A stretch of DNA of 64,000 bases, taken from Amphiscolops sp. MND2022. Lineage: Eukaryota. Location of the stretch: contig OZ076410.1 in assembly GCA_964187785.1 (NCBI GenBank), positions 310,001 to 374,000 of the forward strand. The letters are read 5' to 3'. Positions within the stretch are counted from its first letter, which is position 1, and each line of letters opens with the position of its first letter. The notes under the pieces were generated by a model. The model did not search any database. It was not told where the DNA came from and saw only the letters and a program-made list of their open reading frames with translations. Below are positions 9,871 to 59,621 of this stretch, piece after piece. A program made the translations under genes and the position numbers.

Positions 9871-9903
9871 GTGAGTGAGTGATTTTGGTTTGTGCTGCTG
9901 CAG

Positions 9904-10124
9904 GCAACAGTCAGATCTGTGTGTTCTACTTGAAGAAGCGGGACAAGACCCCCAGCGAATACATCATACTCAACCTGGGCTGTGTGGACTTCATCTACTG
10001 TCTGTGCAATGTGCTCTTCACCAGCTACAACAAGGCCGTCGAACTCTTCGTCTCCACAGATGACGATTGCGACCCCGCCGCACAAACCAGCCACACACAG
10101 AATGTGCTCACAGGCATCTACAAG
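9904..10124 (+). CDS. Class A GPCR, exon 2 (TM1 end, TM2, ECL1)
   Basis: Acceptor CTGCAG|GC completes the TM1 GN motif with exon 1. LNLGCVDF matches the TM2 LxxxD motif. The 3' end is probably the GC donor AAG|GCACGC; an alternative in-frame GT lies at 10164. Confidence 0.8.
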
Positions 10125-10176
10125 GCACGCGACCAGTGCAAAATACAACTACTGCTGAATTTTGTACGAAAAAAAA

Positions 10177-11134
10177 ACAAGACGAGAACGTCTAAAGTCG
10201 GCGCCATATCTAAGGCTCAAAAAGCGCAAAACATTTTTTTTGGAAAAAAACTTGAAACTTTTGGAAGCATTTTTTTCTTTAAAAAAAAGTCGCATAGTGC
10301 CGAAAAATGTAAAAGGGTGACCCTTCTGGATTTATTAACGTTTATTCCGTTGCAAAATATCAAAAACCTCAAAGGGGGGACCCTTTAGTCACGTCCGGTT
10401 TTCTAGGTTTCCTAAAATGAAAGGGAGGACCTTTTGGACTAAGCTTGCTTTGGCGGGACTTGGCCTTGGGTGGTCTCAGGATTGTTTCTAAAAAGTGGAC
10501 CGATCAGTGTGAGGATTGTAGTCTGAAGAAAAAACAAGACGAGAACGTCTAAAGTCGGCGCCATATCTAAGGCTCAAAAAGCGTAAAACACTTTTCGGAA
10601 AAAAATTGAAATTTTTGGAAGCGTTTTTTTCTTTCAAAAGAAGTCGCATAGTGCCGAAAAATGTAAAAGGGGGGACCCTTCTGGATTTATTAACAAACAT
10701 TCCGTTGCAAAATATCAAAAAACTCAAAGGGGGGACCCTTTGGGGACATTAAAAAATTTTCGAAAAAAAGTCGCAGTGCCGAAAAAAATCCAAAGGGGCG
10801 ACCCTTTGGGCACGTCCGGTTTTGTATGTTTCCTTAAAAAAGTAAAAAATGAAAGGGGGACCCTTTGGAGTAAAGTTTGCCTTGGGCGGACTTGGCCTCA
10901 GGTGCTCTGCTCAGGATTGTAAAAAGTGGACCGATCAGTGTGAGGATTGTAGTCTGAAGAAAAAAAAGGTCACTGCTATAGTCGGGCATTTTTCCTTAAA
11001 AGGAAAACGCGCCGACTAAAAACAGTCACTGCTGTAGTCGGGCATTTTTCCTTAAAAGGATAAAGCGCCGACTAAAAACAGTCACTGCTATAGTCGGGCA
11101 TTTTTCCTTAAAAGGATAAAGCGCCGCCTAAAAA
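10177..11134 (+). mobile_element. ACAAG family, two tandem copies with triplicated 56-bp 3' end
   Basis: Starts at 10177 and 10534. GTCACTGCT...CCGACTAAAAACA units at 10969, 11025 and 11081. Confidence 0.8.
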
Positions 11135-11229: not shown

Positions 11230-12160
11230 CCATGAGTTCAATTCCCCTTCCCCAAGCGGCCGCAGGGGGGAAATAAGACAAAAGGTTCAAATACCATTAT
11301 GTCAACATCATTTGCGTTGGAATTTTGGTCAATAAAATAATTGATGTCGATGGTATGCGAAAAACTCGTCGAAAACAACTCGTCGGAAATACAGGGCGGT
11401 GAACTGGTCGAAAACTAACTGGTCGAATAATAATTGAGTGCAAACTCGTCGAATAATTACAAAATACAAACAAGGAGTATCGAGTCTAATTGTGCTAATT
11501 ATGGATTAATTGTCTTCAATTGATTTTCAGTTTCGCTCATATTATAGTTTTTGCTAGTTTTAAAATTGCTTGAAATATTTCATTTTTATAGTTAACAATG
11601 TAATACTTCATAATAAGATGGAACTTAATAACACAGTACGATGACAAAGTTAGCGGTATATTTGTCTGAGACTATTTTCAGTTCTTGCGACGAGTTTTCC
11701 GCCGGAGAATTTTCGGCGAGTTGCTTTTCAACCAGTTTTCCGCCTAGTATTTTTGGCCAGTTGCTTTCGGGGACTTCTTTTCGTCGAGTTATTTTCGACG
11801 AGTTTTCCTAGATTCGATGTCGACATAATCCTATTGACTACATTGACTGCTCATAAGATTTTATGATGGAGAAACTTTGTGTTGAAACAGAGGCCTTTTT
11901 ATACAATTTTAGTTTGTTCCAAGCGTGAACTTCTGCTATTTTGGACATATTTTTTGATATTATCAAAAAATTAGGGTAAAGTTTTTGCCTGAAGTGCCAA
12001 AACAGTTGCAGAGACAAACCCCTAGGTATATACATTTATATAATAATCTCTTGTCAAGGAAATATTTTTATTCGAAAACAAAATGTTTTCGTGTTAGGGC
12101 GGGGGTGAATTCACAATAAGGTGTACCTGGGGGGGGGGAGAATGGAACAAATGGCCCCAA
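11230..12160 (-). repeat. Interspersed repeat family H (hosts MITE insertions); other copies ~49080-49400 and ~52200-53450 on +
   Basis: Reverse-complement matches such as GGTACA(C/T)CTTATTG.GAATT.ACCCCC, TTTTTGATATTAT and ATTTCAACGCAAATTTTCTC. Confidence 0.7.
11352..11815. mobile_element. MITE family C (TSD 9 bp with one mismatch, or 8 bp perfect)
   Basis: Flanks GATGTCGAT (11343-11351) / GATGTCGAC (11816-11824). Inverted AAAACTCGTCGAAAA subterminal arrays. Empty site at 53305-53313 (- strand). Confidence 0.75.
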
Positions 12161-12381
12161 AATTGGATAGAAAGTGCCTACAAAGAACAAAACCAAATGA
12201 CCAAAATGAAACAAATGAATTTTTGAAACAAACGCGGCCGGCGGCGGAAATGTTTCACTGTGGAGTGATTCGAGAGTTGAATCACTCTCACTGCTGTAAG
12301 ATGAACTGCAGCAGATACAGTATTTATTCTGTTATGACGTCATCATTGCATACTACTGTAGTTTGCACTGTGAACCTGCAG

Positions 12382-12532
12382 GCGAGTCAGTTGGGGCTGT
12401 TCACGTTCGTGACCAACTACTCCTACGCGTGCATTTTAATCATCACCATCAACAGGTACTTCGCCGTCTGCAAGCCCATCACCTACAAAGTCATGTGCAC
12501 GTTCAAGATATCCTACTCCCTCCTCATCACAG
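12382..12532 (+). CDS. Class A GPCR, exon 3 (TM3, ICL2, start of TM4)
   Basis: CTGCAG|GCG phase 0. ...NYSYACILIITINRYFAVCKP is a DRY-like motif followed by xAVCxP, with Ser at 3.39. Donor CAG|GTGGGT, phase 1. Confidence 0.85.
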
Positions 12533-12678
12533 GTGGGTCAGCACCATGGTACACTGCCCTCCTTTCCGTAGGGGGGGGGGTGTTTGTTTGGGGTTGTGAT
12601 CAAAGCAAGCAATGCTTGCATTCAAATTGCTTGAAGCGCTGCTTGACCGAACTGGTTAAGAATGCAGTCTGTAGTGAA

Positions 12679-13153
12679 ACAAGACGGGACCGGCCCAAGT
12701 CCGCTTAGCCCATATCTAAGGCTCAAAAAAAGCACAAGGACTTCAAAGTGTCAAGTATTCTCTTTTACAGCATCCGAAAAAACTTTTTGAAAAAAGTCTC
12801 ACAATGCCAAGAAACTGAAAGGGGGACACTTTGGGATTTTTCAACATCCATTTTGTCGGAAAACTCCAAATAAAATTGAAGGGTGACCCTTTGGGGAAAA
12901 ACGTTTTTCTCCGGGAAAAAGTCACACAAGGCCAAAAAAACTGGAAGGGGGGAGCTTTTGGTCTCGTCTGGTATTGTATGTTACGCGTTTAACATTTTTG
13001 GTTCAGTTCCCTTGGCCAACAGGGGCGTTTATAAATTTTGTAGAACTTTTGGTAGAACTATTTTGGTCACTTCAGGTGTATCGGAAAAAAGCACTGACAA
13101 AAACCATGACTATAGCCGGCTCTTTCCTTGAGAAGAACGCCAACTAAAAAAAA
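12679..13153 (+). mobile_element. ACAAG family copy
   Basis: ACAAGACGGGACCGGCCCAAGTCCG...CATATCTAAGGCTCAAAA start and A-rich end. Confidence 0.75.
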
Positions 13154-33573: not shown

Positions 33574-33781
33574 TGTGGCGTTCATGTCTAGTCAAAACTA
33601 AGTTTTCCAAACACAAAATGTCTGCAAAAAAGAAAAAAAAATGCGTTTCTTCTTAGCCGTGGGCCATAAAGTTTGGATGACCAATTTTCGATGCAGCAAC
33701 ATATCAGGCAAACCACTCCATATGTTTGTTAATACGACCCCAAAGAACTCACTGAATTGCAAAAACCGCCGATTCATTCAT

Positions 33782-34190
33782 TGTTGCTGTGCAATACAAA
33801 TAGAACGGAATTAAAACAAATAATAAGGCCATATAGCCTAGTTGTGTAGAGCACCGGTCTCGAGACCATAAGGTCGCAGGTTCGATCCCCGGAACCGTCA
33901 AATATTTGCGAAATTGCCCAAATATTCAAAATAGCTCTGATTTTTGCAAATATGTATTTCGAATAACCTTGAAAATATGCATAAAAAGGTCTTGCTAGCC
34001 GTTGTTTGTTATTGTTTGATAATATTGATAATTAATTATTGTTCTTTTGCCAACCAAGGTTTAATTTTGAATACTTTCGTAGTATCATTTGCCTCGATTT
34101 GTCAACGATTATGGCCGTATTTGAAAGATATTATTCAACTGCTTCCTTTTTGAACCAAAGTCTATAGTATAGAAACCTTAGACTTTTACA
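33782..34190 (+). repeat. 5' LTR of BEL/Pao element
   Basis: TGTTGCTGTG...CTTTTACA, matches 42448-42856. Confidence 0.97.
33827..33900 (+). ncRNA. tRNA-like Pol III unit inside the 5' LTR (identical copy at 42493-42566)
   Basis: A box TAGCCTAGTTG (33834), B box GGTTCGATCCC (33879) at tRNA-like spacing. The anticodon arm is the perfect palindrome GGTCTCGAGACC. Confidence 0.65.
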
Positions 34191-34207
34191 TGGTGGCAAT
34201 AGAGAGG
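34191..34207 (+). promoter_or_regulatory. Primer binding site of BEL/Pao element
   Basis: TGGTGGCAATAGAGAGG directly after the LTR. TGG pairs with tRNA CCA; the first 8 nt resemble Leu-type PBSs (tentative). Confidence 0.75.
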
Positions 34208-35030
34208 CCCGACTGTTTTGTTATATTTTGGTTAGAAACATATGAGCAGTTGGTTCATTTCCAAAAGCGAAGTGCTTGAACTTTATTCTCTGCTTCTCAC
34301 AAACGTGACTTCTAACACTTGGATTACGAAGAAAAAACATTTCAATACTCATGAAACCTGTCTAACAGCTGCAACTGCGCTGCCCTATTCTTCCCCTTTC
34401 TCGCTGTGACCAACAACCACCGAGCACTGAAGAAGGTGTTAACAGCATCGCCAATACCGCTGCCGCTATCTTTTCTCCTCAACCAGCTAGATTGACACCC
34501 CTGGCTCACAATCCCAACTTTTTCAACAGCTGCAGCAGAAACCCAACTAGAACAGCATCTTCGGATTTCTTCGGCCGCTTCCTCAAGTACGTGTTGTGCC
34601 TCTGAGACATGCACTGCTGTGAACTGGCCTTCCTCAGTTGAAACGTGGCTGAATGAGCAACAGTTCAGCGTCGGTCAGCAAGAATCCAAAGAGCGTCAAC
34701 GATTTCCCGCAAGGAAGACGATCCCCAACCTTTTTTTGCCCCACGATTCTAGAAGCCTTCGGCTGACGAGTCTGACAATTTCGATGACTTCATACCAGCA
34801 AGATCTACCAGGTATTAGTGGTGACAAACCTTAGATGTGTTTTTTCTTTGCTTTGTCCTAAATTTGTGCTAATCAGTGCTAGCAAGACCTGAAAATAGGC
34901 CTTAGGAGTTTTTCCAAGGCGTTCATTCGCAACGCAAATTAGCTCATGTAGACTGATAATCTGAAAAAAAGTTTCATAATTTCCGATAATTTTGGAAAAG
35001 GCAGTGAAAATTGCTACGAAAAAAAACCGA

Positions 35031-35633
35031 ATGGTTCGAATTTTGGCCGCAAGTTCTTTGCACCACGCAATTGAAACTCTAAATCCCGAATATCAAAAGG
35101 CTTTCAAAGAAAAAGTATATTCCATTCCGGGCCTGAGTTTGAACATTAACGCAAAAAATTCTCAAAAAATAGTGCAAAATCTCATTGAAAAAGATTTCGA
35201 AGACGAAAAAGATCTGATAATTTGGCACGACGTCATTAATAACAGTATCTGTAAACATAAAAGCAACTTTTATCGTGCCTTGTCAGTAATTGACTTAGTA
35301 AATGTTCTGAAATCCTATCAACATAGAATCAGGGCTCTTGTGTACTGCCAACGGAATCGAACGCCTGACATTTTCTTGCAATTGAAAGAGACAAACATTC
35401 TTGTACTGAACATTGAAAAAGACTTTCTCTCGCTGCGTAAGCAAAAAGATCTCGATTATTTGCAAAATTTGAAGGCGTTGCACCAGAGTCCTGATCTAGA
35501 ATTGAAACATTTGAATCTAGTTTTGAAATATGAAGATGATTTGTCTCAAATTACTGCCCGAATTCGCCCCAAACGCCCCTCTAAACGAGCCCGCAAAGCA
35601 ATAAAGAACACGTTGCCTGCTGCCAACGATTAA
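35031..35633 (+). CDS. Accessory ORF upstream of gag, putative SGNH/GDSL-hydrolase-like protein (200 aa)
   Basis: Intact ORF MVRILAASSL...SIPGLSL...IIWHDVINNS...KALHQS with a basic C-terminal tail. Motif order resembles SGNH blocks I, II, III and V. Confidence 0.6.
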   Translation: MVRILAASSLHHAIETLNPEYQKAFKEKVYSIPGLSLNINAKNSQKIVQNLIEKDFEDEKDLIIWHDVINNSICKHKSNFYRALSVIDLVNVLKSYQHRIRALVYCQRNRTPDIFLQLKETNILVLNIEKDFLSLRKQKDLDYLQNLKALHQSPDLELKHLNLVLKYEDDLSQITARIRPKRPSKRARKAIKNTLPAAND

Positions 35634-35650
35634 ACTACCCCGCCTCTCGA

Positions 35651-35759
35651 GTTGTAGCTGTGTCCGGACTTAACTGACCGGTTGACGCTGCAACCCGCTT
35701 CCTCCTTTCCTTTCTGTGCTGTGTCCGAGCTTAACTGCTCGGTTGGTGTTCAGAAGGAA
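35651..35759 (+). other. Two similar RNA stem-loops (loop TTAACT) between the accessory ORF and gag
   Basis: Hairpins at 35651-35694 and 35707-35759 share internal and terminal loops, while their stems differ but remain paired. Confidence 0.7.
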
Positions 35760-35864
35760 CTTCCACCCTAAACCGCAGCGTGTTTCTTTTTAATTCTGTC
35801 GTACACCGTGCGACGCATCGTGACTATCTTCTTTTAGCCTAAACAAACAAAAAAAACAGGCAGG

Positions 35865-38800
35865 ATGACAGATTCCCAACACGAAAAAGTTCAAAAACTC
35901 CACGAAAATCGGTTGAAAGCGCAAACCGAATTGAATACTCTCCCACAGAAGATACTCGATTCCATTACAAATGGAGATCGAAGAGTTCTAGTTGAACGTC
36001 TTGTCAAAGAAACCGAAGATGCAATGACGAAAGCTTTCAACAGAAACGAACAGTTGATTACACTTGCATCTAAAACGTCTGACTCGGAAGCAACTCGAGC
36101 CGACTTAGAGAAATGGTTGAGTGAAGTCACTGAGCAAAATGACGAAGTTTTGAGAAAAGCTCGTGATTACATCGACAGTTGCACCGAATCCGATGTGAAG
36201 TCCCACTCATCAGTCGGCACAGTCAACAAAAGCGCATCCAAAAGATCATCAACTTCTGGTAAAACGAAAACATCGAGCCAACGACAAAAAGACCTTCTTT
36301 TAGCAACGCAGCGACGAAAAGAACTAGAACGAAAAAATGCGAATGTCATTCGTTTGGCTAAACAGAAGCAAGAGGTCGCTCGAAAACAATTGAAACGCGA
36401 AAAAGAGCGGTTGGAAGAAGAACAAGCTCTCCGATTGGAAGAACTAGAAGAAGAAAACAGACGAAAACTTGCCGAAGCCAAGCTCACTGAATTGGAATTA
36501 ACAGACGACTTCTCTCAAGTGACCGATGAGTTTCATGAAACTCTGTCTCGGATTAGTAAACACTCGAAGCAAACCACGTCCCAGAGAGTGTCTGATTGGG
36601 TTAATGAAGTCAATGAACCTGATAGTGTTTCAAATCAACCGCAGACTAATACAGTTGATTTAAACAATGTACCTGGATCGTCGAACACAGCAGTCATTCC
36701 TGAATCAAACGATGTTGTTCGAATGCGACAAGCAACGCTAGAAATGAGATCATTAGCTGATGGTAAGATTGGGCCGAGACAAAGCCAGATTCCCCAAATC
36801 GGCATTTTGTCTAATTCTACCATTCTGAGGCCAAACAGTACTCCACCTTCATTTGCTGCGATTAACCTACTGCCCATGTTTCAACTACCAACCGTGAGCA
36901 CCACATCGAACACCGTTTCCTCCATGACAGTACCAGTAGTTAATCAGCAACCTCTGACTATGTTCTCGCAAGTACAACCGTCTGTCGCTCCGGCTACGAC
37001 AAGGACTCAAGTCAACTTTCCAACGAGCCATGTCATACCGAACTTGTCCGCTTGGACTTTTCCGGCTCCGAGTAGCTTCCCCACAGTACATGCTCCAGTT
37101 CCGCTACCAAGCACAACTGCAGCACCAATCGTGACAACAACGGGGATTTTTACACCAGTTGTACCAATTCAAAGCGGAGGTACAACTTTCTATTGTAATC
37201 CGCTTGCGACAACAACCCCATCGATGACTTTCCCGATTCCACCGTCTACAACAGCCCCAGTAAACGTTACTTTTCCGACGTTTCCGCATACAGTTCAGTC
37301 AACCATTCCCCCTGTAACGCCAACTGCAGTTACTATCCAAGATCTTGCACAACTACTGACTGCTGCCAAAAAATACCATCTTCCTGAGTGGAAACTAGAG
37401 CATTATAATGGAGACCCACTGCAATGGCACGAGTGGATTGGACAATTTAGAAGTGCCATTGATTCCGCACCACTCTCGAACGATGTGAAACTCACGTACT
37501 TGAAAACGCTTGTAACTGGCAAGGCCAAGACAGCGATAGCTGAGTTTGCTTATTGCGGCACAATGTATCAAGAAGCACTTAAAACTCTCGAGCGTAAATT
37601 TGGCCAGCCACACGCTGTTGTAAGCGCTCACTTGGACAAATTGAGTGGCTTCCCACCGTTGAAAATGCACAACAGTGAAAACGTGATTGCTTTCTCTGCA
37701 ACGATTTCGGCGTTGGTAGGAGTTTTTCGCTCCTTGAAGTATGAACACGACTTGTCAAGTGCAGCATTTTTGGGCCAAGCAGTACAGAAACTCCCCCCAA
37801 ACATGAAGGAAGCTTGGTCTATGCACACTGTCAAGAAGGATTGGAGCCGGCCAACTCTCTTAGATTTTAACGAATGGTTGAAAGATAAGGCCGAGGCACA
37901 CGAGAGGATGAAAGCCTCAGCCACAAAACCCAAGAACGATGAAAGCGCGCCATCCGTTACTCGAACAAAAACTGGTGCAAAAGTTTTTGCCTCTGCTGCC
38001 TCTAGCGCATCTGCAAACGGAACCGGAACCAAGCCTAACCGAGTGCAACCAAACTGTATCGTGTGCAAAGACAATCATCCACTGTGGCGCTGTCGCGTGT
38101 TTCTTGACAAAACGCCGACCGACAGAGCAAAGATTGTTGCCGAAAACAAACTTTGTTTCTCCTGTCTGAAAGGAAACCATTCTTTCCGACAATGTCCGCA
38201 ACCACGCAAGTGCAACAAAGATGGCTGTAACAGCTCTCACAATACCCTGATACATGGCGCAGAAAGAGTCTTCCAACCAAGAACAACACCGAAACCGTCC
38301 ACTAACCAAGCAACTGGATCACGTAGCCCCAAAACAACTGTGAATAAAGCAGGAGAAAGCTCCGGAGTTTGTTCCGTGAGCGATGTGAAAGGACTTCTTC
38401 AAATAACTGAAGTTGAAGTTCATACTTCAACCACCTCCGTCAAAGTTTTGGCACTGTGTGACTCAGCCTGAAGATCTCGCAACCAAGTTGAACGTAAAGG
38501 GCTTACCGACCAAACTGACCGTTCATGGCATCAACTCGCAACAAGTTGTTGACACTCAAATAGTTGAGCTTAAGTTGACGCCTGTTCATTCGGGTGGCTC
38601 TTGCTCTACTTTTGATGTCAAACCTTACGTCAGAAAAAACTTGCATGTTGGAAACGATGTCATTGATGTTGACCAATTGAAACAACAGTACCCTCACTTG
38701 GAGCCCGTTGCTCTGAGCAAGTACAGCTACGGAGACGTCGAAATGATACTGGGTCAACACGTGTTCCATTCAATCCGCCCATTGGAGTATTTTGAATCCG

Positions 38801-41800
38801 ACCGAAAAAATACTCCAATCGCCGTCCGATTACCGTTGGGTTGGGTTTTGAGTGGGCCATTGCCTTCGACTTCGGGACTTGTCTCGACATGCTTCAAAGC
38901 TGTCACGCAAAATGAAAGTCACTCCAAGTTGGCCGATCAGCTTCGGAGTTGATATGAAATGGAGTCTTTTGCTGCAATGAAACAAGTAGACTCGCGCTCT
39001 GCTGCCGATGCTAGGGCGTCGAAGATTCTACAAGAAACAACATATCATGACGGATGCCGATATCAGGTCGGTATGTTGTGGGCTGATGACGAGAGTAGTC
39101 TCCCGAACAACTATTTTTCAGCCTTAGTGCAGTTGAAATCCCTTGAACGTCGACTCGAAAAATCTCCTGAACTGAAAGCGAGTTACGCTCAGACCATTAA
39201 AGACGACTTCGACAAGGGATACATCGTTCAAGTCGACAAGTCAGACTGTTTCAGAATTGACAACCTGCGTGAGTGGCACCTACCGCACCACCCAGTGTTT
39301 CACCCTCACAAGCCAGGAAAAGTACGCCGCGTACTCAATGGTGCTGCAAAATTTCATGGTGTTTCACTGAACAGCAAACTTTTAACTGGTCCTGACTTGT
39401 TGCAAACGTTAATCCATGTGCTCATGCGATTCCGACAACATCCCTATGCCGTATCCGCTGACATCGAGGGAATGTTTTTACAAGTTGGTGTGATCCCTGA
39501 AGACCGACCGTCTCTTCGTTTTCTGTGGCGGGAGGACCCAGCAACAGATGTCGCTGTGTACCAATACGTACGTCACATTTTCGGTTCTAAGGATTCACCA
39601 ACGTGTGCCAACTACGCGTTGCAACAGACTGCACGTGACAACCGAACCCAATTCCTTGAAGCCGCCAACAGTGTGGAAAACCATTTTTACATGGACGATT
39701 ATCTTGAGTCAAGCCCAACCGTCAACGAAGCAACCAAGAAGGCTCAAGATCTTGTTGAAATGTTAGCAAAAGGCGGTTTCAAACTAACCAAGTTTGTCAG
39801 CAATGTCCCAAGTTTGGTTAACTACGTTGACCCGAGTTCTCAACCGTCTACCGAATCGACCGAGAAAGTCTTAGCAACAGACGAAGAGACATCTCACGTA
39901 TTGGGCTTGAAATGGAACCACGGTCGTGATACTTTGGTTGTCAGCAGAGGCACCACGCCTGACCTGAACCGACCAAATACACAGCGTATTGTTCTTAGCT
40001 TAGTGTCCGCAGTGTATGATCCCATTGGTCTTGTCGCGCCATACACTGTAACTGCCCGCCTTTTGTTGAAAGACATTTGGCGCCTGAGCGGGCAACAATG
40101 GGACAACAACCTACCTGACGACGTTAGCGAAAAGTTCCTTGAATGGGCCGCAGAACTTTCCAAGTTGGGTGAGATAACAATTCCGAGATCCTACTTTCGC
40201 GGAACTATTGAAAATGTCGAGTTACACGTATTCGGAGATAGCTCCCAGGATGTCTTTTCCGCTGTTGCTTTCCTCCGTGCAAGAGTGGACAGCAACGAAG
40301 GGACTGAAACTCAGTTAGCCTTTGTCTTTGGAAAAGCTCGTGTCGCTCCCATGAAAGCGCTAACAATCCCGAAATTGGAACTCCAAGCTGCCCTCTTAGC
40401 AGCCCGACTTAAAGACGAAATCCAACAAGCGCTAACAGTACCGGTTGAAAGAACATTCATGTGGACCGATAGTACAACCGTCCTTCAATCGCTCCATTCC
40501 ATCGACAAGAAACCCGTATTCGTCGCCAACAGAGTTGCCGAAATTCTTGAGTTGACGACGGTTGATGAATGGAACCACGTGCCAACAGCTGACAACCCGG
40601 CAGACGCGGGCACTCGCGGCTTGCCGGCGAACGCCCTTTTGAACAGTCCTTGGCTCAAAGGCCCCAAATTCTTGATGAGTTCTGATTGGCCTTTTCAGCC
40701 GTCAAAAGAAATCTTGAAAACTAAATTGAAGAACTTCGATTCCATTGAAGTCAACACCGAGCCAGTCTACCAAGAGACCACAGCAAATACCGCAAGTGTA
40801 GCTTCTAATGTCCTAACTCTTGAGTGGCAAAAGTACAGCTCGTACGAGAAGCTTTTGCGCATTGTAGCCTACATTTTGCGTATTTCACCGAAGTTTTCTT
40901 GTAACAGAACTAAAACAAAAACCATCACTGATCCTGTCGAGCTTGAAAGTGCTGAGCAGAAACTGTTCTTCTTGGTACAGTCCGAATCGTTCCCGAACGA
41001 AACAAAAAATCTGCTCAAGTCTTGTCCATTGTTCAAGCCTTCAATCATAAAAGATTTCTCCCCCTTCATCGGTCCAAACGGCCTTCTCCGCGCTCAAGGT
41101 CGAACAAAAAACCTGGAAGTTGCCAACTTCGATGTCAAGCACCCTATCTTGCTTGACAGCCGACACCCTGCAGTTCGACTATTTCTGGAACATCTCCATG
41201 AGAAACATTGCCATCAAGGCGTCGAATACTTCAGAGCCTTGATACAGCAAAAGTTTGCCATCGTAAAATTGAGAACAACACTGAGGACTATCCAAACCAG
41301 ATGCGTAACATGTCGCAAACGCAAAGCAGAGACGCTGACCCCGATAATGGCCGACCTGCCAAAAGAACGCCTGGCGTTTGCAGCGCGACCTTTTACAAAC
41401 ACTGGCTTGGACTACTTTGGCCCTTTCTATGTATCTGTTAAACGCTCCACGGAGAAGCGGTGGGGTTTTCTCTTCACATGCCTAACAACACGCGCCGTCC
41501 ATTTCGAAGTTGTGCCATCAATGGACACCAGCAGCTGTGTCATGGGAATTGAGAGCTTTGTTTCCCACCGGGGCATCCCCTCCGTCATCTGGTCAGACAA
41601 TGGGACGAACTTTGTTGCAACAGAGAAAGAACTACTCCAGAACGTCCTCAAGTGGAATCATCAATCAATTGCCGAATCCATGGTAAAGAAAGGTGTCAAC
41701 TGGAAGTTTAATCCTCCTAGTGCCCCACATCATGGCGGTGTCTGGGAAAGACTAGTGAGAAGTTTCAAGCATACTTTCTACGCGATACTCGGTAACAGAC

Positions 41801-42285
41801 GTTTGACTGACGAAATTCTAACCACTGTGTTTTGTCTTGTGGAACAGAGCCTCAACGCTCGTCCGCTGGTTCCAGCAAGCGCAGATGCAACTGACTTGGA
41901 TGCGGTAACGCCCAACCACTTCTTGCTTGGAACAGCTGGCTCATCGCTACCGTCCCATTCTAACTGTGATTTCGATCACCGCAAGCGATATGCACGAGCC
42001 CAAGCCTATTCTGACGCTATCTGGAACAGGTGGCTGAAAGAATACGTGCCAACTTTGAATCGTCGCTCAAAATGGCCCTCACAGTCCGCCAGGGAATTGA
42101 AAACCGGAGATCTTGTCTGAATCGTGGAACCCACAAGCCCGAGAGGCTACTACCCTCTCGCGCGCGTCGTCAAACTCAACTTTGGCAGCGATGCCGTCGC
42201 CCGCTCTGCCGAAATTAAGACCACGTCCGGAAACCTCGTCCGTCCAGCCGTGAAACTAGCCCCAGTCCTTCCTTCCCCCGAATAA
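35865..42285 (+). pseudogene. BEL/Pao gag-pol polyprotein, disrupted
   Basis: Pao gag (LPEWKLEHYNGDPLQW), triple Cys/His knuckles, protease LCDSA, RT FYMDDYL, RNase H LHVFGDSS, integrase HEKHCH/CVTC, GLDYFGP, SDNGTNF, GGVWERLV. Frameshifting deletion at ~38469; TGA stops at 38950 and 42118. Confidence 0.95.
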
Positions 42286-42447
42286 CCTGATTTATTGTAA
42301 CCCGTAACATTTGTAATTAACCTATTAACCACATGTACCTTTAAAACACGTATCACCATATGTATCATGTATTTTTGTATCGAATCGATCATGAAAGAAA
42401 AAAAAATTTTTTTTGTTCCGACAGATCATCTTCTTGGGCCCGAAGGA

Positions 42448-42856
42448 TGTTGCTGTGCAATACAAATAGAACGGAATTAAAACAAATAATAAGGCCATAT
42501 AGCCTAGTTGTGTAGAGCACCGGTCTCGAGACCATAAGGTCGCAGGTTCGATCCCCGGAACCGTCAAATATTTGCGAAATTGCCCAAATATTCAAAATAG
42601 CTCTGATTTTTGCAAATATGTATTTCGAATAACCTTGAAAATATGCATAAAAAGGTCTTGCTAGTTGTTGTTTGTTATTGTTTGATAATATTGATAATTA
42701 ATTTTTGTTCTTTTGCCAACCAAGGTTTAATTTTGAATACTTTCGTAGTATCATTTGCCTCGATTTGTCAACGATTATGGCCGTATTTGAAAGATATTAT
42801 TCAACTGCTTCCTTTTTGAACCAAAGTCTATAGTATAGAAACCTTAGACTTTTACA
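42448..42856 (+). repeat. 3' LTR of BEL/Pao element
   Basis: Preceded by GGGCCCGAAGGA (weak PPT) and followed by TSD TTCAT. Confidence 0.97.
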
Positions 42857-45800
42857 TTCATGTTGTTTTTGGTACCGGCTTCAGATTTTTGAGACTGAGT
42901 TTCTTGAAGTGATTTTTTATACCCTAAACTTTTCTATCTAAATTTTCCAACTGGAAAGGTTTTGTCCAAATGTTTGGCAGAAATGAAAACATTTATCCGG
43001 TCCTCTGCATCTTTGATGTTCAGAGTGAAACCTCGTGTGAAATAACTTTGGAGTTAACCACTGATTTTTCTTGTCGATTGATTACTCGCTCAGATTTTGA
43101 TACGCTTCTTGCCTCGCAAATAACCAAGGCAGTGAAATGTGCTTGAAACAGACAAACATACTCCCGCCTTTCACAAAATGGGAGTTTGAACTCCTGTCTT
43201 ATAACCAGATCTCTCACTTAAGTTATAAAACCTAGAATTTTTTATTACTCTGCCATAACCTCGACAGTACACCGGGAAGTCGAAAATTGACAAAATTTTG
43301 GCAAAATTTTTTTCAAAGCTTCATTTCTCCACAAATAATAGCCGCAGCTCCAATCGGTTTTCTGTTCCTGGAAGCCCTTTACCTAAGCTTTCAAATGCAC
43401 ATTAGTTAGGTCGCGAGTTGGCGCCACTTGTTGGGGTGAGAGCGCCGAGATTTCAAATGCCAATTGTACTCATAACTGAAGCTTCGTTGAAAAAACTTCT
43501 ATATGCATTTTCAATGGTGGCCTACTCTGTTACTAGAGTGGGACAGTAACTTAGCAAACAGTTGCTCAGTTATTGAGAAAAAACGAATTTTCTGAAATGT
43601 ACTTTTTTTCACTTTTTGCAATTTTTCACTTTTTTTCAGTTGCTTTTTAGCCAGTTGCTCGGAAAAAAATCTATATTGACTCAAATAACAATTCACACCA
43701 GACAGTCCAATAGATTGTCGATAAGAAAGACAGTTTTTCGTTTTCTTCTATGCTTTTTGCGTCGTAATTTATTATTGATTGCGAAAAAAAATCGCTGTTC
43801 TCATTTGAGGACGAAATCACTGTCGAGGATAATAAATCCTCCTAAGGCGAACTACAAACGAACACGAAAGTTGTTGTAACTTCTGCAGTGCGAAATATCC
43901 CCCCATTACCCTCACAATTTTACGTTTTTTTATTTCAGTTAGTCAATCGGTCGAATCCAAAACTTAGCTGAGAGAAAACAGGTTTGAGACAACTGAAATG
44001 AGAACGAAAACGTACTTTCCTATCGTCACAAAAGTTTTTTAAATGTACCAAGGTTTCCCTCGCTGACAGATCATTTCCGGCTGATTGACTGCCGATCCAC
44101 ATAATTCCACACAACGCTTATTGATTCAAAATGCAAGTTGCAAACTGAGAAATTTCAACGCGCTTTTTTGAAAAAAAATTATGGACACCTAATTTTCGAG
44201 AGTTCTGTTCACGCCTGGCTGCCTGTTTACGAAGTTGTTCACGACGCTCGACTGACCTAAACGGGAAGTTGGCCATAAATATTCAATAAACTCCAGATAG
44301 AAGAACTTCTTAAAAACGTCAGGAATCATCGGAAGCCATGGCATTGTTTAGATAGCAGCTGGGAAAAGTCGAGCTTCAATAATTTGCGGGGCGTTTGATT
44401 TAATGCGTGGAATTTAGATTGAAGAGATAACATGGATGGATATAATATCATGCCTCTCAGAGTTGAAGCAAGAACTGCGAATGAAAGCTACATGGAAGTT
44501 TCCAGACACCTCCTTTGAGAAATTATGCAAATTTGCCATACCACTTCCACAATTGCAACGAAAAAATGAAAAAATTGGCATTTTTATTGAATCACTTAGT
44601 CTTCCAAATGTCGTTTCTCAACTTCTGCACTCAAGAAATCACAGTCACTCAAATCGCTCGCCAACGGTGACACAAGCTTACAATTGATAAGTGGTTGCAC
44701 AAGTTTTTTTGCATAAAATAAGCGGTAACTTACGGATGAAGATTTTGCTGCTTTCAAAAATTGAACAGATGCGAATTAGGACCTGCAAAGCCTCTTTGTT
44801 TTGAAGTGCCGCCAATTTCAAAATAGCTGTCAAACTAGACAGCAAACGAAGTCTCTGACGCAACAGAGAATTTTAGACATCAAACGAAAAGCCTAACGCA
44901 ATTGGGAATTTTTGACCTTGGAAAATTGGACGGTGTTTTATGAAGCATGATAAAAATAGTTCGTTCAGTGTTCGCAATGTTGATCCAATGGCGTAATGGG
45001 GCGGCGTTGCTCGAAAAATATTTGGTCATCCGAAAGCTGAAAACTACTTCGTGCAAAATGCCTATCCCAAACTGCTGTAACTTTTTACGTGCTGCACACC
45101 TGCTGTAACGGCAAGCGTTAAGCGTTTGTTACGTGACGATAGTGTGGAGGAACTGATATCATGGATATTGTCCGGGACAAACCACCATGCCACCAGCCCA
45201 TTTTACCTCCTAGGGGTTGCCGGTCCCGAGTAGGGGGAACTGTCTTAAAGGATGCTCTCCGGTCTGATCCAGTCTGTAACTGCTGAGAATAACGGGCATC
45301 CGTCTCGGACCTTCGCCTCAGACCACCGTTTAGACAGCCTTTAAAAACAATGCCAAGGATAAACATTGTAAATTTCCATCCTCAGGGTGGTATCGGAATA
45401 AGATCAAAAATTCGGAATAGTATCTAAAATTGCACAAACTAGCACTCGAGCTACTCCAGATGGATAAACCCAGCGAAAATACATCACAGCACACATCAAA
45501 CTGGCAGTCCACGCATCTACAAGTTGAGGCGCAGGGGCTTCAAGCACCAAACAAGAATAATTATGCCAAAAGTCTCATTTCACCGGCAATGAATGCTCCA
45601 ATGGCAATGAAAATTGTAAACACTTTCCATTTCGTCACCGACATGATCACCTTGTATTCACACTTTTTTCCCAACTGCTCATCTGATGTGATCACCGCTT
45701 TTCAGAAAGCACACTAAATAACGCTTAATAGCAGTTAAAGAAGCGGCGGAAGGTATTTTGTATTAAAATGGTGGTAAAACTGATAACAACATTGTTGCAT

Positions 45801-46676
45801 TTTATATTAAAACTGTATCCCCGTGAAACCTGGAAAACTTCAAGGCTCAAATATGTCGCGAAAATTTTCATGCTTCGTTCAAGTAGCTTGATGAAATTCG
45901 AAGATGATAAAATAACCGAGTCTGATTCCTTTTTTTTCAATGTATTTGAAATCGCATTAAAGGAATTAGAAACCGCAACTAGAAAGTTTCACTTGGAGTC
46001 ATCATGCCCAGACCATCAGATTCGAACCCGGAACCTCTCAGTACGGCGTTTGTTTAACGGTATCCTGCCTTGCAAATTAATGCGCTGCAGATCATGACAA
46101 AGACCGTCGGAGAAATCAGAATGAAAGGAAATATCTCATAATTAAAAGGAAATCAGCTTCGTTTCGCTTTTGGCTGAATATTTAGTATTCAACATGAAAA
46201 CTGACGAGAAAGAAACACGCGAAAGATCACCAGATGATAAAAACTTGAGGATATTTCTACAAATGACTTAGTTAGCGGACAACCGTGCAGACTCTTCAGA
46301 CCTATCCACAAATTTGCACCCTTGGAAACAAGTTTGACCCTTTGAGTACCACGGGCGACCATCGGTGAAATTGCAAGGAGGACATTGAGTGTTGAAATGT
46401 CTAACTGTTCATCAAATTTCGGATTGCGTTGATAAGAATCTCTAGTTTTCGTAGAAACGTTGGTATGAATCTGCACAAGGTGGCTCGGCTCTTTTCTGTT
46501 TTCCCCCCACCACCATTTTTTTGGAAATTTAGTGCAAATTGTATAACAAAAAGACTTGGATACAAACCAGAAAGTTTCAGTTTTAAATTTATTCTTCATG
46601 TGACATTTTAGGATTCAGAAACAAATTTTGTTCACACTTTTTCAATGTGTAGTCACGCATTTTTGATGAAGAAATC

Positions 46677-47202
46677 CGTAAAGCGACAATTCGTCCCAAG
46701 CGACAATTCGTCCCAAGCGACAATTCGTCCCAAATTCCAAAAGGCGACAATTCGTCCCAAGCGACAATTCGTCCCATTTTGAAAAGGCGACAATTCGTCC
46801 CAATTATTAAAAGCTGCAATTTGTCCCCAATTTAATTGCCAATAAAGACCTTTGTAATAATGAATCCGGAAAGATTACAATTAAAGGCAGGTGCCAACAA
46901 TTAATTTTAACATTCCACGGCTAGTACGTTAAAACGCAACATTTTCTAATTATTCTCACATGGTTGAATGAATTCATTTGTAGTTGGTTTGATTAATTTT
47001 CTCGTTTCAATCTTCAAAAGGTTGGTAATTAGCTGATCAATTAAACAATTTGGGACGAATTGTCGCTTTTTACAAATGGGACGAATTGTCGCCTTTTCAA
47101 AATGGGACGAATTGACGCTTGGGACGAATTGTCGCCTTTTGAAATTTGTGACGAATTGTCGCTTGGGACGAATTGTCGCTTGGGACGAATTGTCGCCCAA
47201 CC
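46677..47202. mobile_element. MITE family B (MULE-like, 9-bp TSD) with inverted GCGACAATTCGTCCC arrays
   Basis: TSD GAAGAAATC at 46668-46676 and 47203-47211. Empty site in a paralogous repeat at 50851-50859 (-). Confidence 0.9.
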
Positions 47203-53777: not shown

Positions 53778-56700
53778 TGTTGTAACTTTATGGTACAAGA
53801 ATTTACTTTCTATCAAGACTGTATTTTATCTCAAAGCTATTGTTTCTCAACGAACTTTAGTATGATAAAGATAATACAGTATAGGCAGGTACTTCAGACT
53901 AATTAAATAACAATAAGAACAATAGTGTCTGAGATATAAAGTTTGTCCTCTAGCTTATTCAGCTATGCCACATTCCCCCCTCTTTGATTGGAAGTAGCTT
54001 AGCCAATGGGGAGTGTGTTTTCTATTGTTGAGGCGGTCTTCCGTCCAAAGCTGTTGTTGTTCACGGTGTTCCGTGTACTTCCTTCTTTTGTGGTCCGGTT
54101 GTCAGGATGTTCTTCCGGAGCGGTCCATTTAGTTTGTTGGGTTAGTTGTTGTCCATATTGTCCTCGGTGTCCGGTGTGTTTTCCCGGCCATTCAGTCTTT
54201 TGACGGTGTTTCCTATAATCAGAAGGTACTGGATTATTAAGCCTGATTATTGGGTTGGTTTTTGTCAAGCGGTTCGATCTACGTAAATTATGTTCTTTTG
54301 TTTCTTGTTCAATTTCGGTACTTGAGCTGAGATTGCTAAGTAATTCTAGTTCTGAGGTGTCTTGTTCGGTATAACTATTTTCTACATTGTCTTCTTCCCC
54401 TCCTTTGGGGGATTGGTAGTTATTTTGAATTACCTTACCGTTATTGTCTTTGAGGTGTAGTTCTGTGTTTGCCCTTCTGGCATCCTCAATGACACGGTCT
54501 ATTTCCGCGTCCGTCATGTTCTCCGTTACTACTGTTAACGGTCCAATGTTTGATTGTTGTTCCGGGTTGGTGTGAGTTTCTCCCGGAGAGCCAGAGTTTT
54601 GGCGGTTTCTGACTAGCTTTGGTCGTCCCCTGCCAATTGTGCTGTGTTTTGGGGGCGGTGTTGTGTGCTCTCCAAATGTTGTAGTTGCTGTGGCGGTCAC
54701 TACCGGTGAGGCTTCTCCATGGTCGCTGTCTGAGTCTGGGACATTGACTATCCTCGGTGATTTGGTAAAGCGGCCATCTGGTCCTCGTGGTCCGATGCCC
54801 CGATTGGTGTTGTTTTCCTGTACAATTTCAGAAATGGGTTTAATAATATGTTTTCTGTGCAAGATTTTATTATCCGACGTTGTTATTGTATGTTTGGTGC
54901 CCGATATGGCTGTCTGTGTTTTATCGGAATATGCACTTTCAAACTTCGGTTTATTTATTTTCTTTTCAAAGAAAAGGAACGGATATTTACTAACTCCTTT
55001 TTCTCCTTTCTTCTGCTTCATCGGTAGTTGGTCGGAGGCACCGCCAGCTCCGCTGAATGAGTACACCTGTAAGGTGTCTGGTTTTGCTGAAATACAACTT
55101 TTTGTAATAGACTTTAAAGCGTCTAGGTTTAACATATTGCTTATTTCCGTGTTCGGTTCGCGTTCGTAGTGTAGCTCAAATGCTGACCTTTTTAATCTCG
55201 TATGGGGTGTTTTCCGCATGATTTCCAGAGCTATGTCTAAAGCTTTACCGAATTTCTCTCCGGCCTTGATATTGGTTAGTAATGTTTCTTTCAATATTCT
55301 TACGCCGCGTTCAACCAATCCTGTCGGTGTATGGATATACGGTGTCCCGTATATTAATTTTATCTGGTGAGTTTTGCAAAAGTCTCCAAATGTACGGCCC
55401 GTGAACGCGGTAGCTTTATCCGTTCTAATGGTTTTCGGGATGCCGTTCAGATTTATGTACTGTTCTAGGAATTTAGTCGCCGTTTGTCCGTCCGTGGTTT
55501 TACATAAGCTGGCTGCGGGTCATTTGCTAAATCGGTCCATTGAAAGTAAAATGTAGAATTTTTGGTTCTTTTCGCTTATGGGGCCGATGAAATCCATTTG
55601 GATTTCTTCGTTCGGTTTATTTACGGTTGGTAATTGACTTACTTCCGTACTAGAGATGTTAGGTTTAATGCTCTTACCGGACATTTTGCACGGTACACAG
55701 CCGTCGCACTTTTTCTGGATAGCTTCCGTCAACTTTGGCCACCAGAAGTGTCTCGCTGCCATCGACATCTTGTTAATGGCGGGGTGTCCCTTGTGAAGGA
55801 GGCTAATTATTGTGTTCCGTAGGTTCTTCGGGACAATTATTCTATCTTCGAAGAATTCCAATCCGTATCTGGTGGAGAGCTTTTTCTTGTACATGGTGTA
55901 TTCCTCGGGCATGTTGTCATGTTGCTGGCGTTCCAGACATACCAGCGTTTTTAGGAGGCTAGGGTCGTTTGTGGTCTCCGACATAAGTAACTGGAGATCT
56001 GTGGAGAAATTCTTTTCAGTTTCTCTGACGGCGTTCCCCAGGTCCCAACTGTTTTGTTCCTCTGAGTCTACTCTGGGAGCGTGGCCCATCTTTATGTACT
56101 GGACGCTTTTGACGTCCACGTATTTGGCCCAATTGATGGCCGGAACTTCTAGGACGGACGGGTCCTGATCGGTATCTGATCCGATTTCGCCTTCTTCCAT
56201 TGGGGCGTACAGTGTGATCGGAGATGATGTCCCGGGTTGCTCTTGTGGTCGCTGTGGGCGATCTAGTTCCCAGAATGGGTCAAAGGTCCATTGTTCATTT
56301 AGCCGTTGTTGTGGCTGAAATCCCTGCGGTTGTTGTTGTTGTCCCGGTAAGTTTTGTATGGCTAATTGTAGGCGTTCTTCTATCTATTATTTTCCGTTCG
56401 TTCCGGAGAAATTTTGGCTCGTGGTATTTCTTCCAACGGCCACCGGATTGTCTGTAAATGCCCGGTTTTACTATGTCTCTCCATCGGGCTATCAGTTGTC
56501 TGGTTTCTGCAGACGAGTCTGCGGCTTCAAGGTTATCTATGGTTCTAGCGTCCATAGTTAAGTTGTTCGAATTTGTGATAGAATTGATGCAACTTTCTGG
56601 CGGTCGATTAAGGCAAGCAATGGCAGTTTGTTCACGCGTTTTGGAATGTTTCGATTCACTAATCCGAGTCGCGTCGTGTGATTGGTTAAAGTGGTTGCTA

Positions 56701-59621
56701 TGGCAACCGTATTTGACTACGAATTTGTAGTGCGGGACGATGTTGTTGATTACGTATTCTTCGTCGTATGCGTCATCCGCTTGCGGTGGTGCTGACGGAT
56801 TACGACTGAGATAATCCGTGAGCGCTAAGTGTTTACCATCAATATGGCTTACGTTGATTGAAAAGTGAGCTAATCGGTCGAGCCATCTAGTTAGCCGTGC
56901 GCTGTATGTTTTGTTTGAACGGTTTCGTTTAATTAATGGTTCTAGAGCTTGGTGATCCGTAAGTAATTTTATCGGTTTTCCGTATATGTATAAACGGAAG
57001 TGTTCAAGCCCCCATACCACCGCTAATAGCTCCAGTTCGTTAATGGCGTATTTCTTTTCCGTGTCTGAAAGAAAGCGACTGGCAAATCCGATCGGTTTTA
57101 GTTTACCGTCCGGTTGTTCTTGCCATAGTGTAGCCCCAAGGCCTTTTGTGCTGGCGTCTGTGGTGATTATGTTTGGGTAATTAGAATTGTAGTGCGCCAG
57201 ACACGGTATTTCCGTGATTTTTTGTTTTAAATTTTCGAATGCTTCCGTGTGTTCCTCGGTCCAAATCCAGTCATTATCCTTTTTTAGCAGTTGTCTTAAA
57301 ACGTCCGTTTGTGCTGAGAGATTTTCTTTGTACTTTGACAAATATTGGATTGCTCCGAGGAATGATTTAAGTTCCTTTTCATTCTCCGGTTTCTTCAAGT
57401 TTTTAATCGCCAGTAACTTGTCCTGTAACGGTCTAATTCCGTTTTGCTCAATTTTATGTCCAATCCATTCAATTTCGGTTTTGAACAGCTCCGATTTGCT
57501 TTCGCTCAGTCTGTAACCGGCGTTTTCCAGTTTTGATAGTACGTCGGTTAATTCCTCCAAATGTTTTTGTTTGGAGCCTTTTGTTACGACTATGATGTCG
57601 TCTAGCCATGCTGGGTGTTTGTTTTCCAGTGTTTGGTCAATTTTCTCTTGGAATATCGTCGGGATGTCGGCTAGCCCGTAAAAGCCTTTTAAAAATCGGT
57701 AATAACCGGTAAAGTTTCCCCCGGTTACTGCGAAGATACATAAGTCCATTGCCTTTTTTGATAATCTAAGTTGACCGTATGCATAATCTAAATCGAACTT
57801 CGAGATCCAGATTTCGTCCGCCGGTCCGTCTGCAATTTTTCTGGAGATTCTTGATATTAATTCCTCCATATTGGGCATTTGTGCCTTTCTTTTATTGTTA
57901 TTTCGTTTAGTTTTCTTGAGTCCAGTGCAATTTTTACCGACTTGTCTTTTTTATGGTGATTACCGCTGGGCTTACGAAACAATTTTCGTCAATATTTTCA
58001 GCTTTTTCGATGTGGCCCAATTTTTTCAATTTTTCGATTTCTTTACCCACTGCTTGTTGCAAATGGATAGGAAAGGGTCTACCTTTTTGTTGGATTAGTT
58101 TTGCGTCGTCTTTTAATTGTATATCAACTTCCACGTTTTCTACCGTGTGGTTTGTTGAAAATAATTTGTGGAACTTACTTTTCAGTGCTGTTATTTCACG
58201 TTCCGAGTTGCGGCTGATTTGGTTCGGTTTGTCGGTGATGTGTTTTATTGTTTGGGTGTTATTGTCCGTGATCAGTGTGATTCCGAGTTTTTCCATCCAG
58301 TCTAATCCGAGTAGTGGGTGTGTTTGTTTAGTTGTTACCAGTAATTCCAGTTGTCTCTCTTTACCATCTATTCTTATGTTGGCGGTTGTTTTCCCTTCAA
58401 ATTTTATTTTGTTGTCGTTCACGTCCCGGTAGTCTGTAGTTACCGGCTTCATTGTTGTAATATTGTTGAATTTTGATTTTGGAATTAGAGTTATTGGTGA
58501 GCCTGTATCAACGATGAATTTGATTGGTCGGTTATTGACCAATAACGTTTTGGTGTAGAACGGTAGTCCGTTCTTACTTCCATTGCCCAGTGAGTTGATT
58601 TTTTGTTGAATTGAGTGTATTCTGTCTGGTGTCCACTCGTCTTCGTCTGTTTCTGGAGATTCATTTAGTTTTTCATACATGTACTCATGTATTGCCTCTG
58701 TGATAGCCTCCACTGACATGTCACTTTTTCTAATTTTCTTTTTTAATTCGTAGTCGCCTGTGGATTTCCCGATGAGCGATAAGAATTTTGAGGCCAAGAG
58801 TTCGGCTGCCGTAATGGTTTCGAACTCGCAGTTTTTTTCCACCTCCAGTTTTCTCTTCCAGACGTCTGCGGCCGTTTCGTTTGATTCTCTTTTCAAATCG
58901 AAAAAATCGGCCCTGCTGTGTTGCACGTTCCGTTCTGGAGTGAAATGTAGTCGGAATAGGCTGTATAGTCTATGTAACGGTAGAGTGTTGGGTTCTCGTT
59001 CTCTCACCGTTTTTGTCATTTCTGATAGGGCACTTTGTCCAATTGCCCAAAGAAACGTGTCTTTGATTTCTAGTTCCAGTTGATCGCGGAATTGTGGCAG
59101 GATTTCTTTTGGATTTACCATTTGTGATAAATCGATGTCTTTTGTCATTTTAATATATTGGACAAATTTTCGCCACCACAAATTTGCGCTGGAGCTGTCG
59201 TGTTTTTCTATGCTGGGAATGGTCAATTTCTGGGTACATGTCCGTTCTCCCGCTCTTGTTGTTGTTTCATTGGGTATCAACTGGCTGCTGGATGATTGAT
59301 CGGTTGCCCGGTCATGCTGTTCCCCCATTGGACGGGTGGTGTTCGTGTCTTCCATTCTTTGGTAATTGATGGGCTGATCACGAATGTTTATGGTGAATGT
59401 CAGTTATACTGACACTGACTGCGCCATGTTGTAACTTTATGGTACAAGAATTTACTTTTTATCAAGACTGTATTTTATCTCAAAGCTATTGTTTCTCAAC
59501 GAACTTTAGTATGATAAAGATAATACAGTATAGGCAGGTACTTCAGACTAATTAAATAACAATAAGAACAATAGTGTCTGAGATATAAAGTTTGTCCTCT
59601 AGCTTATTCAGCTATGCCACA
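53778..59621 (-). mobile_element. Ty3/Gypsy LTR retrotransposon with both LTRs, 5-bp TSD TCTGT
   Basis: 195-bp LTRs (53778-53972, 59427-59621) differing by 1 substitution. TSD at 53773-53777 and 59622-59626. PBS TGGCGCAGTC on - after the 5' LTR; PPT CAAAGAGGGGGGAA before the 3' LTR. Confidence 0.97.
53999..59355 (-). pseudogene. Gypsy gag-pol polyprotein, disrupted
   Basis: Gag; protease FIVDTGS; RT SKFDLDYAY and WLDDII; RNase H TTDAS, NELELLAV, TDHQAL; integrase HKGH/CDGC, MDFIGP, RTDKATAF, GLVERGV. Frameshifts near 57945 and ~56380; TGA stop at 55520. Confidence 0.93.

Follow-up and report, generated by a model that had tools for sequence, protein, structure and literature searches.

ORF0, a 200-aa reading frame in front of gag of a BEL/Pao retrotransposon, very probably represents a family of stand-alone accessory genes that are kept by selection, sit 5' of gag or ORF1 in BEL/Pao, Gypsy, and LINE elements, and have been exchanged among these classes more than once. 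Its product is predicted to be a divergent SGNH-fold domain of the alpha/beta, flavodoxin-like type, with a Ser-His pair and a basic tail. Why retrotransposons carry SGNH esterases has been asked ever since the ZfL2-1 structure was solved (PMC3905857) and ORF3 was surveyed in rotifers (PMC5408684). ORF0 extends the BEL/Pao plan by a 5' accessory gene; it is a free, well-predicted, and selected domain present in young copies of three element classes. The exchange of a gene between LTR and non-LTR elements implies a common cellular step.

The element carrying ORF0 lies on the plus strand of a 64-kb window, the whole stretch of DNA that was analyzed and to which all coordinates refer. It measures 9,075 bp, is LTR bounded, and has the 5-bp target-site duplication TTCAT on both sides (positions 33777 to 33781 and 42857 to 42861). 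Comparison of the 5' LTR (33782 to 34190) with the 3' LTR (42448 to 42856), each 409 bp long with TG..CA ends, revealed differences at 3 of 409 positions; the element is young. The 5' LTR is abutted by an 18-nt primer-binding site (34191 to 34208), recovered by exact-pattern match in 26 of 30 loci, whose length is that of Belpaoviridae sites for tRNA-Arg or tRNA-Gly, which are candidate primers only. Then follow a leader (34209 to 35030), ORF0 (35031 to 35633, ATG to TAA with no internal stop), and a 231-bp spacer (35634 to 35864). The gag frame (35865 to 38471), which starts with the ATG at 35865 and matches DUF1759 in Pfam, is interrupted close to its end by a change of frame. A protease-region piece (38407 to 38952) closes at an in-frame stop; it has no Pfam match of its own and shares 74 to 80% identity with its counterpart in subfamily-2 elements. 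Reverse transcriptase, RNase H (Peptidase_A17), integrase, and DUF5641 were located by Pfam in the segment from 38953 to 42120, which ends in a premature stop. A purine-rich tract at the polypurine tract (PPT) position (42436 to 42447) precedes the 3' LTR, and relatives have a similar one.

The Pfam matches of gag-pol (DUF1759, RVT_1, Peptidase_A17, Integrase_H2C2, and DUF5641) identify the element as BEL/Pao. It shares the Belpaoviridae plan (PMC8742986; PMC3118150) in its primer-binding site and PPT, LTRs within 0.2 to 1.2 kb and with TG..CA ends, target-site duplication, length of 9.1 kb within a range of 4.2 to 10 kb, Gag with DUF1759, and the pol order PR-RT-RH-IN with a Pao-type Peptidase_A17. 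The initial annotation, made from the sequence alone, had described an uninterrupted 200-aa ORF between the primer-binding site and gag of an LTR-bounded element and three lesions in gag-pol. Both descriptions were accurate, the lesions being the frame change near 38,470 and the in-frame stops ending at 38,952 and 42,120. Several sibling elements have gag-pol as a single frame of about 2,140 to 2,180 codons. A tRNA-like stretch with A-box- and B-box-like motifs is present in both LTRs (33827 to 33900 and 42493 to 42566); the B-box motif recurs in 29 of 30 sibling loci, and the surrounding sequence varies between subfamilies (L001 to L030). Neither ARAGORN nor Rfam called it as a tRNA. Its first bases are those with which the primer tRNA would be expected to begin, and the stretch is possibly a Pol III/TFIIIC site.

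At least 150 matches to ORF0 were found in its own genome of 1.07 Gb (150 scored of 3,503 candidates). All of the best 30 loci continued downstream into the same spacer and gag start, and an LTR match lay upstream in 28. At about 60% identity, BEL gag, protease, and pol were located downstream in each of the 20 loci fetched; two of 20 short loci (L053 and L059) had no gag match and were left unclassified. Reciprocally, when loci were chosen by the gag N terminus, ORF0 was detected upstream in 29 of 30. ORF0 is therefore an integral 5' accessory ORF and not a nested insertion, as had been proposed, given that the context was the same in 30 of 30 loci, BEL in 20 of 20, and retained in 29 of 30 in the reciprocal test.

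Selection was estimated by pairwise Nei-Gojobori dN/dS, which yields whole-gene averages over pairs that are not independent; for ORF0, 287 of 300 pairs with dS above 0.03 were used. Five ORF0 copies and one gag copy with stops, as well as one copy without a located gag start, were omitted. This comparison among copies, which the initial annotation had suggested, gave a dN/dS of 0.15 for ORF0 in 25 stop-free copies, compared to 0.14 for gag; reading ORF0 in its two shifted frames gave 0.92 and 2.43. The corresponding ORF0 values were 0.12 in a second subfamily (18 copies) and 0.41 in nine young Gypsy copies. ORF0 is under purifying selection on a par with gag. In public data, 660 clusters of the family were found at 50% identity (E ≤ 0.001), and the 150 listed were 74 to 282 aa long, mostly about 200 aa. 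Genome matches, frame-specific dN/dS, and these clusters together establish ORF0 as a real gene and not a chance ORF. The best matches in the own genome of two public relatives were only 48% and about 40 to 43% identical; therefore, the family is probably present in species beyond this host. Despite the 660 clusters, it has no Pfam model and is consequently missed by standard annotation.

All 89 ORF0-selected loci with a readable context were in retroelements: 72 in BEL, 1 in Gypsy, and 16 in LINE elements, with the class assigned by Pfam for selected loci and by sequence match to those for the others. The divergent loci were picked by hand, not at random, to span subfamilies; L086, in which the cut missed the ORF, was left out of the counts. 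The first divergent set (19 usable loci) comprised, by Pfam, 15 BEL elements, 1 Gypsy-type LTR element, and 3 APE-RT LINEs, and pol of these BEL elements was 30 to 79% identical to that of the window element. The second set (20 loci) comprised 7 BEL and 13 LINE elements, 7 loci being classified by Pfam and the others by sequence match. Members of the family precede the first ORF in elements of several BEL lineages, one Gypsy family, and three LINE groups. In each divergent locus ORF0 preceded gag or ORF1, and it had its own ATG and stop in intact copies. ORF0 lies inside the mobile unit of the LINE and Gypsy elements. For all 11 further LINE copies, the match to the reference started 130 to 210 bp before ORF0 (nine share one edge), and flanks were unrelated except for two copies with a common flank. 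For 10 of 11 further Gypsy copies, a single match ran from the LTR edge through the primer-binding site and ORF0 into gag; the 11th was in two pieces. The ORF0-bearing LINE family has 12 copies at 98 to 100%, and the Gypsy family has about 40 full-length copies above 83%.

A tree was built from 48 own-genome proteins trimmed to the ORF (L036 with an extra tail). It contains five label changes for BEL and six for LINE; the Gypsy ORF groups with a LINE ORF (100/99), as does one BEL group with two LINE groups (96/94). AU tests rejected a single LINE clade (P = 2e-5) and a single BEL clade (P = 9e-4), which speaks for exchange of ORF0 between element classes. The best cross-class identities were 40 to 48%, and with its long branches and weak backbone the tree does not fix the number and direction of transfers. 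The initial annotation had suggested an undescribed BEL/Pao lineage marked by a 5' SGNH gene and had wondered whether homologues always sit upstream of Pao gag. The gene holds up as an accessory of BEL/Pao (72 of 89 loci), but it marks no single lineage, since 16 loci are LINEs from three groups, 1 is Gypsy, and the BEL copies are not one clade. Homologues mostly in LINEs or at scattered loci and missing from sibling BEL copies had been named as signs of a one-off insertion. LINE homologues do exist (16 of 89), whereas 29 of 30 siblings carry ORF0, so that the original finding is widened and not refuted.

Twenty BEL loci selected by DUF1759 alone served as a control limited to BEL, in which about 2.6 kb upstream of the gag frame was searched. 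Two had a member of the ORF0 family, three had another, canonical SGNH ORF in the same place (one of them broken), and 15, of which 10 represent one family, were without an SGNH ORF within this distance. ORF0 is accordingly dispensable for BEL elements in general. The canonical ORFs, termed type B, occupy the slot 5' of gag at L172 (1190 to 1822, minus strand), L176 (1890 to 2492, plus strand), and, in broken form, L168. They contain the motifs xDS, PG, GGN, and DxxH, have a weak Pfam match to Lipase_GDSL_2 below the cutoff (E = 4.5e-4), and in the ESM Atlas have neighbors at 0.93 to 0.94 among eukaryotic GDSL clusters. A PDB sequence search with type B gave no matches, and a single-sequence fold prediction (pLDDT, 41) was discarded. 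With 150 of 946 candidates scored, the genome yielded at least 152 type-B matches. The 5'-of-gag slot in BEL elements is thus optional and filled by two SGNH families. Their use of the same slot suggests that ORF0 and type B may be interchangeable, and they may have a common origin; a profile comparison of type A (ORF0) with two single type-B sequences gave no match. Related BEL families that have ORF0, a canonical SGNH ORF, or neither lend themselves naturally to comparative tests of lipid binding, catalysis, and partners. Many type-B matches of about 45% identity occur in the genome as same-strand pairs about 8 kb apart (C2:55485396 and C2:55493731, C7:59190497 and C7:59198420, and C12:27191924 and C12:27199848), a spacing that would fit an ORF located within the terminal repeats of some other element.

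The leader upstream of ORF0 is hypervariable. Among L001 to L030 it was 748 to 1,120 nt long with 3 to 11 ATGs and short internal repeats, whereas ORF0 and gag were about 90% or more identical between the same copies. With so many ATGs in so variable a leader, scanning from the cap to ORF0 would be unlikely. All 30 leaders contain an acceptor-like island 91 to 259 nt upstream of the ORF0 ATG (34880 to 34889 in the window copy), and 23 of 30 have a loosely defined donor-like site 40 to 130 nt upstream of the island; the window copy has a donor-like GT at 34812. A second acceptor-like site, a pyrimidine tract with AG that ends at 35837 in the window spacer, precedes gag in 29 of 29 loci with a located gag start. 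From these motifs, the template for ORF0 translation is probably an RNA processed by splicing at the leader acceptor-like site. Only 13 of 30 copies, the window copy not among them, have no other ATG between the island and that of ORF0; splicing is put forward as a hypothesis for this reason.

Two further motifs were observed around the end of ORF0. Counted with a pattern defined post hoc, 11 of 29 representatives (L080, L082 to L084, L148, L149, L151, L154, L159, L160, and L163) have a splice-donor-like motif no more than 22 nt from the ORF0 stop, compared to 80 of 1,814 background windows; the window's own clade lacks the motif. The LINE spacer between ORF0 and ORF1 has a recurrent short motif flanked by complementary bases (L083, L146, L148, L149, L084, and L159), a possible hairpin for reinitiation.

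The four SGNH-like motifs of ORF0 named in the initial annotation are present in the order given there, and its proposal of an SGNH fold agrees with the structure predictions. An AlphaFold2 model from a 100-sequence alignment reached a pLDDT of 95.7 and a pTM of 0.89. Foldseek ranked SGNH/GDSL esterases first, with a probability of 0.99 to 1.00, a TM score of about 0.48, and a best E value of 3.1e-3, all E values being above 0.001. A full VIA search matched the model to acetylxylan esterase, OatA, and an acyltransferase at Z up to 10.5 with 139 to 153 residues aligned at an rmsd of 3.3 to 3.7 (best match: Z, 10.5; rmsd, 3.7; 153 residues). In total, 31 chains had a Z of at least 8, and the matches listed were mostly titled as GDSL or SGNH-type enzymes. 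SGNH/GDSL enzymes headed both PDB fold-match lists. The domain-swapped ZfL2-1 esterase structure 4C1B was outside the top 50 of both VIA lists; this absence is no sign of difference. Among BFVD viral structures, the model matched SGNH-like phage domains, none at an E value of ≤0.001. By sequence, Pfam assigned no SGNH family to ORF0 and 100 relatives, with just scattered subthreshold matches, and a PDB search with the ORF0 profile gave no matches. An ESM Atlas match to bacterial solute-binding fragments (best, 0.82) was dismissed as noise.

In the 100-sequence alignment, the Ser, Gly, Asn, and His of SGNH blocks I, II, III, and V occur in order, each at the expected secondary-structure position. 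Conservation was 91% for A7, 93% for S8, 91% for G34, 94% each for W65, H66, and D67, 80% for N70, 92% for N71, 93% for H151, and 88% for E157; N70 or N71 is the candidate oxyanion residue. The canonical Ser-His-Asp triad is incomplete. As was pointed out originally, the Asp of block V is absent: its DxxH slot, position 148, is variable (R, 18%; K, 17%; Q, 14%; S, 11%) and not Asp. The Asp ahead of the block I serine is missing as well. The conserved D67 and E157 are candidates for an alternative catalytic acid. A main-chain oxygen serves as the acid in 5 of 30 SGNH structures (PMC10792757, section 2.4.3), and the missing Asp is thus compatible with catalysis. With S8 and H151 each kept at 93%, the catalytic alteration considered in the initial annotation is a possibility only. 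The family has a median pI of 10.4 and an Arg/Lys-rich C-terminal tail (about residues 176 to 192), with at least 6 Lys or Arg within 12 tail residues in 58 of 66 sequences.

It is already known that LTR elements can contain an SGNH ORF and that such ORFs are shared across classes (PMC5408684). The nearest precedent, not cited in the initial annotation, is the bdelloid GDSL/SGNH ORF3 of Vesta LTR retrotransposons, also found in Athena Penelope-like elements (PMC5408684); the rotifer cases are restated in PMC6431247. Like ORF0, ORF3 is a stand-alone SGNH ORF of an LTR element, crosses classes in one genome, and is present in some families only. As described in PMC5408684, however, it follows pol as a third ORF in LTR clades of rotifers, has intact invariant residues, and evolves near neutrality within genomes, whereas ORF0 precedes gag or ORF1, belongs to BEL/Pao, Gypsy, and APE-LINE elements, is without the DxxH Asp and a Pfam match, and is under purifying selection. 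The second relevant system is the esterase domain in ORF1p of CR1/L2/RTEX LINEs, with the ZfL2-1 structure (PDB 4C1B; PMC3905857). ORF0 resembles it in its predicted SGNH fold, basic charge, location in the 5' part of the element, and Arg-rich motif beside the domain. The ZfL2-1 motifs are GDSIV, FPGARV, HVGTND, and D-x-LHPS (PMC10792757), and the transposon-specific residues of these esterases are His191 and Ser228 (PMC3905857). With the motif register set by eye and not by superposition, H66-x3-N70 of ORF0 falls on the transposon-specific H191-x3-N195, of which N195 is catalytic (PMC3905857; PMC10792757). In contrast to the LINE esterase, which is the C-terminal domain of ORF1p behind a coiled coil and has a full Ser-His-Asp triad (PMC3905857), ORF0 is a separate ORF of about 200 aa with a stop before a distinct ORF1 or gag, is not fused to a coiled coil, and has its basic motif at the C terminus. 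ORF1 behind ORF0 is of PHD or zinc-knuckle type in L089 and L160, and no fused form of 495 aa or more was found, which is weak evidence. The ICTV profile of Belpaoviridae lists gag, pol, and env only (PMC8742986); a term search found no "esterase" in PMC3118150 and no "esterase," "SGNH," or "GDSL" in PMC13524379. The literature covered, outside which were Repbase Reports and most subscription journals, yielded neither a stand-alone 5' SGNH cistron in BEL/Pao nor a single SGNH family common to BEL, Gypsy, and LINEs; prior database annotation of the cistron is possible.

By analogy with ZfL2-1, we give an even chance to a role of ORF0 in tethering retroelement particles to membranes. The ZfL2-1 esterase is basic, hydrolyzes p-nitrophenyl acetate, and binds anionic lipids but not oligo(A) RNA, and docking of the RNP on membranes with single-turnover release has been proposed for it (PMC3905857). 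ORF0, probably made from RNA spliced at the conserved acceptor-like site in the leader, would work like this module of ORF1p. Its basic surface and tail would bind the RNA-protein particle of the element and anionic phospholipid, and the SGNH pocket would hold an acyl chain and hydrolyze it slowly or once. This would dock the particle on membranes, where it could be assembled or transported. Such a docking or transport step, shared by LTR and non-LTR particles alike, would account for the exchange of ORF0 and also for its apparent substitution by a canonical esterase. A broader reading, which we hold only tentatively, is that in this host lineage BEL, Gypsy, and non-LTR elements share an "ORF0" slot with its own RNA-processing signal. 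Two SGNH families would occupy this slot and move between classes on account of a function that does not depend on class, such as entry into germ line or stem cells via membranes or evasion of host silencing. The protein would then be an env substitute or general helper with a noncanonical Ser-His site.

An unlikely alternative is that ORF0 is a trans-acting counterdefense protein, guided by its tail to the nucleus or RNA granules, that acts on a host silencing factor by deacylating or sequestering it. Such a protein would be of use to any retroelement, which would account for the spread across classes. The protein is indeed encoded separately from Gag and ORF1p (subject to the weak evidence on fused forms), is common to elements with unrelated particle proteins, has an NLS-like Arg/Lys tail, and is optional among BEL families. 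However, dN/dS values of 0.12 to 0.41, although whole-gene averages only, resemble structural constraint and not an arms race, and a benefit purely in trans would be open to cheaters, yet 29 of 30 siblings retain ORF0. No SGNH antisilencing protein was found in the literature covered.

We consider it distinctly unlikely that ORF0 is a nonenzymatic RNA-binding domain resembling OSK of Oskar, acting as a chaperone of element RNA or bringing it to germ line granules. OSK (5a4a) matches the ORF0 model (Z, 8.3; rmsd, 3.9; 145 residues aligned) and also has an incomplete triad, and the missing Asp and high pI of ORF0 would fit such a role. In OSK, however, a host germ plasm protein, Asp replaces the nucleophile serine and the triad is lost (PMC10792757), whereas ORF0, found only in retroelements, retains S8 and H151, each conserved at 93%. 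Enzymes outscore OSK in VIA (Z of 10.5 versus 8.3), the acid can come from the main chain as noted above, and the ZfL2-1 esterase did not bind oligo(A) RNA although it is basic. There is next to no chance that ORF0 is a passenger, inserted once or captured from the host without a role for the element: the hypervariable leader around it and its absence from many BEL families would fit, but it lies inside the element ends, keeps its position in elements with pol only about 30% identical to that of the window element, was retained in the reciprocal test, and is under purifying selection equal to that on gag.

No type-A or type-B SGNH ORF besides ORF0 was detected in the 64-kb window. A broken Gypsy-like element on the minus strand (53999 to 59403) has pieces of gag, protease, RT-RNase H, and integrase recognizable by eye. 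Three plus-strand frames (2326 to 2835, 9879 to 10388, and 12109 to 12708) have, by eye, helix-1, helix-2, and "INRY" motifs, and we take them to resemble exons of a G-protein-coupled receptor gene. An inverted array of about 17-bp repeats at 46656 to 47196 is probably a foldback or MITE-type DNA element.
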